DNA of 13,501 nt from IMG/VR virus record IMGVR_UViG_2711768074_000021. One strand, given 5' to 3'. Below the pieces are notes generated by a model. That model was not told the DNA's origin. It saw only the letters and a program-made list of their open reading frames with translations, and made no database searches. Numbering within the stretch: the stretch's first letter is position 1; every line of letters starts with the position of its first letter. The position numbers were made by a program, and so were the translations under genes. This DNA is from a virus (taxonomy: Duplodnaviria > Heunggongvirae > Uroviricota > Caudoviricetes). Of the stretch, positions 5,353-5,474 are shown in pieces.

Positions 5353-5382
5353 TTGAAATGATCATATAGCTGCTGATATCTT
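5353..5382 (+). promoter_or_regulatory. Candidate sigma70 promoter for a short plus-strand transcript
   Basis: TTGAAA (5353-5358), 18-nt spacer, TG-n-TATCTT extended -10 (5374-5382). Weak match. Proposed only because a strong plus-strand terminator lies about 70 nt downstream. Confidence 0.25.
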
Positions 5383-5450
5383 TAGAACTGTTCTTGGATG
5401 TTTCGGAGCCGTTTTATGCGAAACAGCTCCCCGTTATTGATGTTGAGTGA

Positions 5451-5474
5451 GCCGGGTTACTCCCGGCTTTTTTT
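5451..5474 (+). terminator. Rho-independent terminator, plus-strand orientation
   Basis: GCCGGG (5451-5456), loop TTACT, CCCGGC (5462-5467), then seven T (5468-5474). The minus-strand equivalent has no T tract, so it is plus-specific, although all flanking genes are on the minus strand. Confidence 0.7.

Follow-up and report, generated by a model that had tools for sequence, protein, structure and literature searches.

The window analysed in this study, a stretch of 13,501 nucleotides from a virus of the Caudoviricetes (IMG/VR record IMGVR_UViG_2711768074_000021), covers the immunity and early genes of a lambdoid (Stx-type) prophage from E. coli. It contains a cI-like repressor gene (6596-7291, plus strand), a cro-like gene (6178-6468, minus strand), a gene of the Ant/Rha family encoding 235 amino acids, a spacer and an isrK-C4-Ash/Rha region, beyond which follow an O-like initiator gene (2820-3812), a DnaC-like gene and DnaB. 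The gene immediately upstream of the spacer (5474-6181, minus strand, with its TGA stop at 5476-5474) belongs to the early-right operon; it matches PHROG 63, 'anti-repressor Ant', with an E-value of 3e-46 and is annotated by PGAP as a Rha family transcriptional regulator. In the first-pass annotation this gene had been placed in the cII position, an assignment that has to be abandoned; a CII-like protein (PHROG 4836, 192 amino acids) is encoded on the other arm, at 7408-7986 on the plus strand. The best promoter-like site of the window, the pL-like TTGACA-17-TAATAT (7356-7384), lies beyond the terminator at 7303-7319, which belongs to the cI-like gene, and ahead of this 192-aa ORF, placing the CII-like gene on the leftward arm and not beside cro. 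Repeats containing CTTGAT, which have the look of operator half-sites, occur both at 6470-6575, in the region of the divergent cI/cro promoters, and at 7390-7440, after the pL-like promoter. The early-left region also harbors a group II intron (11074-12687, plus strand), composed of a 507-aa ORF (11074-12597) and a domain V/VI match (RF00029, 64.9 bits, 12601-12687).

Downstream of the spacer, a 282-aa ORF of the 'ash/Rha family' is annotated at 4517-5365 on the minus strand. It carries a Phage_pRha domain as well as anti-repressor PHROG matches, and encloses two RNAs on the same strand, i.e., an isrK-like RNA with its own terminator (5232-5308; RF01394, 62.3 bits with a gathering score of 50) and a C4 antisense RNA (5123-5210; RF01695, 75.1 bits with a gathering score of 45). 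The predicted isrK promoter (5315-5343, minus strand), with the hexamers TTGATT (5343-5338) and TACACT (5320-5315) separated by 17 nt, puts the transcription start at 5308, which is exactly the first base of the Rfam isrK match. The corresponding promoter of Salmonella isrK has been shown experimentally (PMC4825925). The ATG at 5365 has no Shine-Dalgarno sequence and is located upstream of this predicted start, and the 'Ash' half of the ORF displays a pN/pS ratio of approximately 1.0-1.2 in the annotated frame when compared to four diverged alleles. The start of the ORF is doubtful on these three grounds. Judged by its codons, the N-terminal 'Ash' part seems to be conserved at the level of RNA and not of protein, and ATG 5365 is probably not a real start, in which case the true downstream neighbor of the spacer would be an RNA cassette with its own divergent promoter. 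The earlier description of the spacer as lying between two minus-strand genes thus holds for the upstream side, whereas on the downstream side the neighbor is the isrK-C4 cassette and the annotated gene start is doubtful. The 'Ash' frame stays open nevertheless, and some other junctions supply a Shine-Dalgarno sequence and an ATG in frame. The isrK cassette itself behaves as a mobile module, the left boundary of which coincides precisely with the end of its -35 (…CAATAT). At least eight unrelated contexts precede it, among them divergent plus-strand genes such as a HigB-like ORF (MNYTIEYYSEE…), and in some related phages two isrK-C4 cassettes are arranged in tandem, 656 nt apart (eight loci, at 524-1368 in L160).

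The most prominent element of the spacer is an intrinsic terminator on the plus strand, recognized by direct reading, by a terminator scan and by its fold energy. The hairpin (5449-5469) reads GAGCCGGG-TTACT-CCCGGCTT with a GCCGGG (5451-5456)/CCCGGC (5462-5467) core, and merges into a run of seven T (5468-5474). With eight pairs, six of which are G-C, the site at 5449-5474 is the top-ranked terminator-like site of the window. The energy of the hairpin (5449-5469) amounts to -14.5 kcal/mol, compared to -8.6 and -9.6 kcal/mol for the isrK and cI terminators of the window and -16.1 kcal/mol for lambda tO. Direct reading thus confirmed the strong GCCGGG-TTACT-CCCGGC-T7 terminator that the first-pass annotation had proposed for the plus strand. 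The same applies to its proposed overlap with the upstream stop codon: the minus-strand ORF 5474-6181 stops at a TGA that reads TCA on the plus strand (5474-5476), and the last T of the U-tract is the single base shared with it. In the minus-strand reading, CACUCAAC and no U run comes after the hairpin. The terminator is consequently one-directional and could act on plus-strand transcription only.

On the same strand, 67 nt separate the hairpin from the end of the -10 element of a putative sigma-70 promoter, which we call P+ (5353-5382). Both a promoter scan and a sigma-70 matrix predict its -35 hexamer TTGAAA (5353-5358) and its extended -10 element TGaTATCTT (TG at 5374-5375, hexamer at 5377-5382), and it is arranged back to back with the predicted isrK promoter. 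The combination TTGAAA-18-TGaTATCTT scores 9 out of 12 with an extended -10 in the promoter scan. Promoter-like sites as a class are not above chance in the window (12 found versus 15.4 expected), yet among the roughly 135,000 positions scored on the two strands P+ takes second place according to the sigma-70 matrix, a rough one built from our own rounded frequencies. Only the pL-like promoter at 7356 ranks higher; the predicted isrK promoter (sixth) comes lower, and so does lambda pO when scored in this manner. The site and its distance agree with the 'weak promoter-like site about 70 nt upstream' described before, but the epithet 'weak' does not fit this ranking. There is no CII-type TTGC-N6-TTGC site at P+, and matches to this motif occur in the window at chance level; inspection of the sequence around P+ also revealed no LexA-box-like CTGT-N8-ACAG.

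From the positions of promoter and terminator, a plus-strand transcript of about 86 nt is predicted within 5387-5476, starting at 5387-5390 and ending in the T-run at 5470-5476. The match of a covariance model of the element spans 5385-5476. The predicted RNA folds at -28.8 kcal/mol (z = -3.5 versus shuffles) and would consist of four parts. The 5' end carries the decamer GTTCTTGGAT (5390-5399), which is predicted to be single-stranded (candidate seed GUUCUUGGAU). It is followed by a predicted stem-loop, SL1 (5405-5430; GGAGC-c-GUUUU / GAAAC-a-GCUCC), by an A/U-rich linker, CCGUUAUUGAUGUUGAGU (5431-5448), and by the terminator hairpin. A small plus-strand ORF of 25 codons, starting at ATG 5416, runs through the terminator and is absent in related alleles of the element (alleles B and C, see below); it was rejected as a candidate gene. 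When the whole window and a 171-nt region were searched against Rfam (release 15) at a permissive threshold, the plus-strand element had no family match: all matches were generic terminator matches, the best being sroD with 24.5 bits versus a gathering score of 50. The exact sequences of the element were not found in the searched literature either, in which the RNA is undescribed. The prophage sRNAs known from EHEC and EPEC (Pas sRNAs, HnrS/EcOnc10-12) are other RNAs, encoded in late regions.

The spacer region (161 nt) is present in 238 of 5426 complete E. coli genomes (4.4%), always in the chromosome. Nine phage records contain it as well, among them PhiR49_2 and phages converting to Stx2a or Stx2d. 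Its carriers include the strains O55:H7 RM12579, O145:H28 RM13516 and ECOR13 (PhiR49_2), and SE11 in the case of allele B (see below). Among the 40 of the 238 matches listed, the well-studied strains of O157:H7 seem to be missing. Three alleles can be distinguished in 98 loci (97 from phage and genome collections plus the window itself): allele A, the type of the window, in 73, allele B in 16 and allele C in nine. Another 34 metagenome loci again carry alleles A, B or C, bringing the total to about 130 loci. Allele A is approximately 74% identical to B and C, and the differences are unevenly distributed. The -35 hexamer, the TG and the T-A-T..T positions of the -10, the spacing of 18 nt, the decamer GTTCTTGGAT, the GTTGAG(T/C)GA that runs from the linker into the base of the hairpin, the hairpin stem and the run of six to eight T are kept in all alleles, whereas the promoter spacer and the middle of the transcript have changed by substitutions as well as indels. 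The decamer is unchanged in the consensus of all three alleles, with one substitution each in two single loci. In the case of P+, alleles B and C carry TGgTATTTT as -10, again at a spacing of 18 nt, and the promoter scan recovers the corresponding promoter and terminator in these alleles too. Seven of the 18 spacer positions of P+ vary among the alleles. Four out of five codons of the annotated minus-strand ORF that cover the -35 region change amino acid between alleles, yet TTCAAG has remained the same. Such conservation fits a promoter and not a protein.

Promoter, decamer, stem-loop and terminator always co-occur, and no locus has one part alone. Scans of the collections keyed on the transcript body, on the promoter only or on the hairpin flanks only all led to the same kind of locus. 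Four scans of viral contigs, one of metagenome data and one of genomes returned no further alleles or contexts beyond A, B, C and the phiP27 type discussed below, and a covariance-model search of 618 kb of related phage DNA gave no partial, extra or remote copies. As scans by different parts return the same loci and no other copy, the element is one indivisible unit. It is always located between the stop codon of this Ant/Rha allele and the -35 of the isrK promoter. Distant Ant/Rha homologues in Yersinia, Providencia, Proteus and Atlantibacter overlap directly with the next gene and have no such unit, and in Stx1-type phages a diverged Ant/Rha allele is joined to the next ORF without a spacer. 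The unit is thus optional, indicating an added module rather than a by-product of the flanking genes. These sequence features, their co-occurrence and their pattern of conservation are direct observations, drawn from few independent lineages since the comparison comprises only three alleles and one analogue, all with near-identical flanks.

This analogue is encoded by phiP27-type phages. Here, the same Ant/Rha allele is followed by a different plus-strand hairpin, GGCCGG-N-CCGGCC, with a T-rich tail. The predicted promoter, TTGATT-18-TGaTATTGT, is situated inside the first codons of a BRO-N antirepressor gene, with both hexamers intragenic. The predicted RNA is shorter (about 55 nt) and would be complementary to the Shine-Dalgarno sequence of this BRO-N ant gene, in line with sar of phage P22, which likewise covers the Shine-Dalgarno sequence of ant. 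The -35 region of the phiP27-type promoter (CTTGAT) resembles the operator-like CTTGAT repeats mentioned above; CTTGAA in the window does not.

Among known phage RNAs, P22 sar is closest to the candidate in geometry, while lambda OOP resembles it in position; on sequence comparison it is homologous to neither. Similar to sar, the candidate RNA would combine a 5' region, one stem-loop and a terminator hairpin in a short molecule that runs against an operon and fills the spacer between two genes. In both systems the terminator abuts or overlaps the upstream stop codon and the promoter overlaps the annotated 5' end of a downstream antirepressor-type ORF. E.g., the annotation of P22 places sar at 15021-15090, the end of arc at 15022, the start of ant at 15091 and Psar at 15097-15125. 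In the window we found the same arrangement, a spacer in front of an antirepressor gene with a unit on the opposite strand whose terminator is located at the upstream stop, and the flanking genes again belong to antirepressor families. In alleles A to C the -35 lies inside the annotated ORF and the -10 upstream of its doubtful ATG, compared to a promoter within the antirepressor gene in the case of sar. Three differences stand out. The unit of the window belongs to the early-right operon next to the immunity region, whereas sar is part of the separate immI region of the late operon. The downstream neighbor in the window is an isrK-C4 cassette with its own promoter. Finally, the predicted RNA of alleles A to C begins about 22-25 nt before ATG 5365 and thus does not extend over a ribosome-binding site, so that the mechanism of sar cannot apply literally. 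Local alignment revealed no sequence homology to sar (score 12 versus 13.3 +/- 2.2 for shuffles).

Lambda OOP is similar in size (77 nt versus about 86 nt for the candidate), is convergent with the pR operon and oriented like cI. Both have an extended -10 promoter, comparable in predicted strength, which extends into the beginning of the following annotated ORF, as well as a strong intrinsic terminator with a comparable energy and a two-hairpin fold. A short RNA convergent with pR and ended by an intrinsic terminator, as in OOP, is predicted for the window. The neighbors are different: the upstream gene is Ant/Rha and not cII, the downstream element is the isrK-C4/Ash-Rha ORF and not O, and only 1-3 nt of upstream coding sequence would be overlapped, compared to about 55 nt of cII by OOP. 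The general design is the same, with OOP situated one step further along the operon. Sequence homology to OOP was not detected (local alignment score 16 versus 13.4 +/- 2.1 for shuffles, with a fraction of 0.14 scoring at least as good), and Rfam holds no OOP model, lambda's own oop region giving no match. Positional OOP analogues have been observed by transcriptomics in other lambdoid prophages (OOP-BTP1, PMC7067206). The suggestion of an OOP-like RNA in the first-pass annotation is supported in the anatomy of a short convergent unit, which is conserved in three alleles and has an analogue in phiP27, but neither in the cII/O neighbors, nor in the length of the overlap, nor in sequence likeness. 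The RNAs immediately adjoining the candidate in the window are those of P1/P7 immI (C4) and Gifsy-1 (IsrK). In Salmonella, the isrK-C4 cassette controls the antirepressor post-transcriptionally, at the level of translation, as well as prophage induction (PMC4825925). C4 and IsrK are encoded on the operon strand and derive from a processed or terminated sense transcript; in contrast, the candidate lies on the opposite strand and points away from the isrK promoter. We would class this candidate as a non-homologous addition to the known short convergent antisense RNAs of temperate phages, such as sar and OOP.

Based on these features, we propose, with a confidence that stands about midway between doubt and conviction, that 5353-5476 is a plus-strand gene for a cis-antisense sRNA of about 86 nt, convergent with the early-right operon. 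We infer the production of the RNA, its pairing with the early transcript and the consequences of this pairing as follows. The sigma-70 promoter P+, with its extended -10, would fire against the minus-strand early-right operon and yield an RNA of about 86 nt that comprises the single-stranded decamer, the stem-loop, the A/U-rich linker and the terminator, with its U-tract ending on the upstream stop codon. Such an RNA would be perfectly complementary to the untranslated spacer of those early-right transcripts that read from the first gene into the cassette, and because of this perfect complementarity its action would most likely be in cis, as for sar and OOP. If it acts like sar and like OOP, for which cleavage of the sense mRNA depends on RNase III, the duplex formed with the read-through mRNA would be cleaved or decay, supplemented by some interference through convergent transcription. 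The antirepressor cassette and the replication genes would then be left to the isrK promoter and to control by IsrK and C4, uncoupled from read-through from pR.

The same anatomy can be read without a function for the RNA. In this explanation, which the first-pass annotation had raised as its alternative and which we regard as rather unlikely but as the most serious rival, a divergent promoter next to the isrK cassette fires rightward and the terminator is an insulator that guards Ant/Rha, cro and cI from this or other antisense transcription. Divergent promoters are indeed common at this position, as the -35 of the cassette is directly followed in other copies by a plus-strand gene that diverges from it and has its own promoter. 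A strong, one-directional terminator suits such a role, the hairpin travels with the 3' end of this upstream-gene allele in the contexts of A, B, C and phiP27, and no trans target was found in the phage. Related phages that join both modules without a spacer show that no insulator is needed when there is no promoter; what an insulator leaves unexplained is the very retention of a promoter in which hexamers, TG and spacing are preserved. It also does not account for the conserved decamer and the maintained SL1, other positions of the transcript having diverged with indels. The inner helix of SL1 is built from G-C/U-A/U-A/U-A/U-G in allele A, from A-U/C-G/U-A/U-A/C-G in allele B and from C-G/U-A/G-C/C-G in allele C. 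Its sequence thus differs in each allele, and yet a hairpin forms at the equivalent place every time, with a moderate significance versus shuffles. These pairs were compared in a hand alignment, as MAFFT cannot align three different stem-loops and the automatic consensus structure of the covariance model is poor as a result. If the element were an insulator only, the finding would be ordinary.

The hairpins could instead serve the minus-strand mRNA as 3' stabilizers, as a processing site or as a nut/put-like signal, with the match to P+ being incidental. We consider this quite improbable. Within the early-right operon, no untranslated gap precedes the spacer, and SL1 is at least as good a structure on the minus strand, where it forms 10 contiguous pairs in allele A and is more significant (shuffle fractions of 0.002 on the minus and 0.17 on the plus strand). 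Two polymorphisms of SL1 in allele A (GGAAC, AGAGC) are wobble-compatible, as G.U, on the minus strand only. The terminator points in the other direction. Its stem is invariant in about 130 loci except for one U.G wobble variant, and both rare stem variants (GAGCTGGG and GGTCGG of phiP27) form U.G on the plus but C.A on the minus strand; being wobble-compatible on the plus strand only, they make the terminator look like a plus-strand RNA structure. The run of six to eight T, which is non-coding and present at every locus on the plus side of the hairpin, has no role for a hairpin of the minus strand, and the hairpin loop differs between alleles (AGUAA versus UAGUGA, minus strand). No Rfam family matches the minus strand of the spacer element. 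The fold of the whole transcript is more stable on the plus strand in three out of three alleles. Among rare variants of SL1, two favor the plus and two the minus strand, and the overall wobble tally is four to two for plus, small numbers that are indecisive. Judged from these pairings, SL1 may be of importance on either strand, in keeping with a sense/antisense pair. Two specific minus-strand signals were considered: a nutR/boxB or put-like reading was rejected, there being neither a copy of the hairpin nor a boxA/boxB-like repeat in the pL leader, and a Rho-utilization site is not supported by a C/G ratio of only 1.3, which is not rut-like.

It is improbable to a still greater degree that the RNA is a trans-acting sRNA of the Hfq type, in which the decamer would serve as a seed that recognizes mRNAs of the host or of phages, or else a host sRNA in the manner of prophage anti-sRNAs, and the complementarity in cis would be a side effect of its location. 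The anatomy of the candidate would fit, given the conserved single-stranded 5' end, the variable stem, the A/U-rich stretch and the terminator with seven to eight U. The T7-8 tail is indeed preceded by an A/U-rich linker, UUAUUGAUGUU, as in Hfq-type sRNAs, and prophage sRNAs acting on core genes have precedent (PMC4104026, PMC13502914). Yet the complement of the decamer occurs only at the cis site and nowhere else in the window or in the 41-kb phage PhiR49_2, in which the best duplex with a translation-start region does not surpass those formed by shuffled seeds. The isrK-C4 spacer offers an 8-nt match, but this is lost in a type-A locus that has a different allele of isrK. Finally, a chance juxtaposition of promoter-like and terminator-like sequences without any role, as the lack of enrichment of promoter-like matches as a class in the window might suggest, is hardly credible for a promoter and a terminator that rank second and first in the window, have been maintained together across three alleles and about 130 loci, and have an analogous unit in phiP27.

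For the proposed antisense RNA, the existence of alleles opens a further, distinctly speculative view to which we attach little probability. The alleles, which have promoter, seed and terminator in common but differ in the sequence of the stem-loop, may be specificity variants of an antisense RNA that is produced by the resident prophage. Its target in trans would be the early-right transcript of another phage with the matching allele, whether incoming or co-resident, providing allele-specific immunity or exclusion. If this were true, an RNA-based, allele-specific immunity or exclusion would govern the expression of antirepressor and replication genes, stacked beside IsrK and C4. In a related and equally speculative view, the terminator would be subject to regulated read-through, which would turn P+ into an establishment-type promoter producing antisense RNA through Ant/Rha and cro into cI.

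In summary, the element is located between two genes of antirepressor families, in a region of early control that belongs to lambdoid prophages, some of them converting to Stx2a or Stx2d. If the RNA is made and limits read-through, it would be the third RNA regulator within about 350 nt, and spontaneous induction, and hence the release of toxin phages, could be under its influence. The design known from sar and OOP would thereby extend to a further, non-homologous case, in which a short convergent RNA exactly fills an intercistronic spacer.
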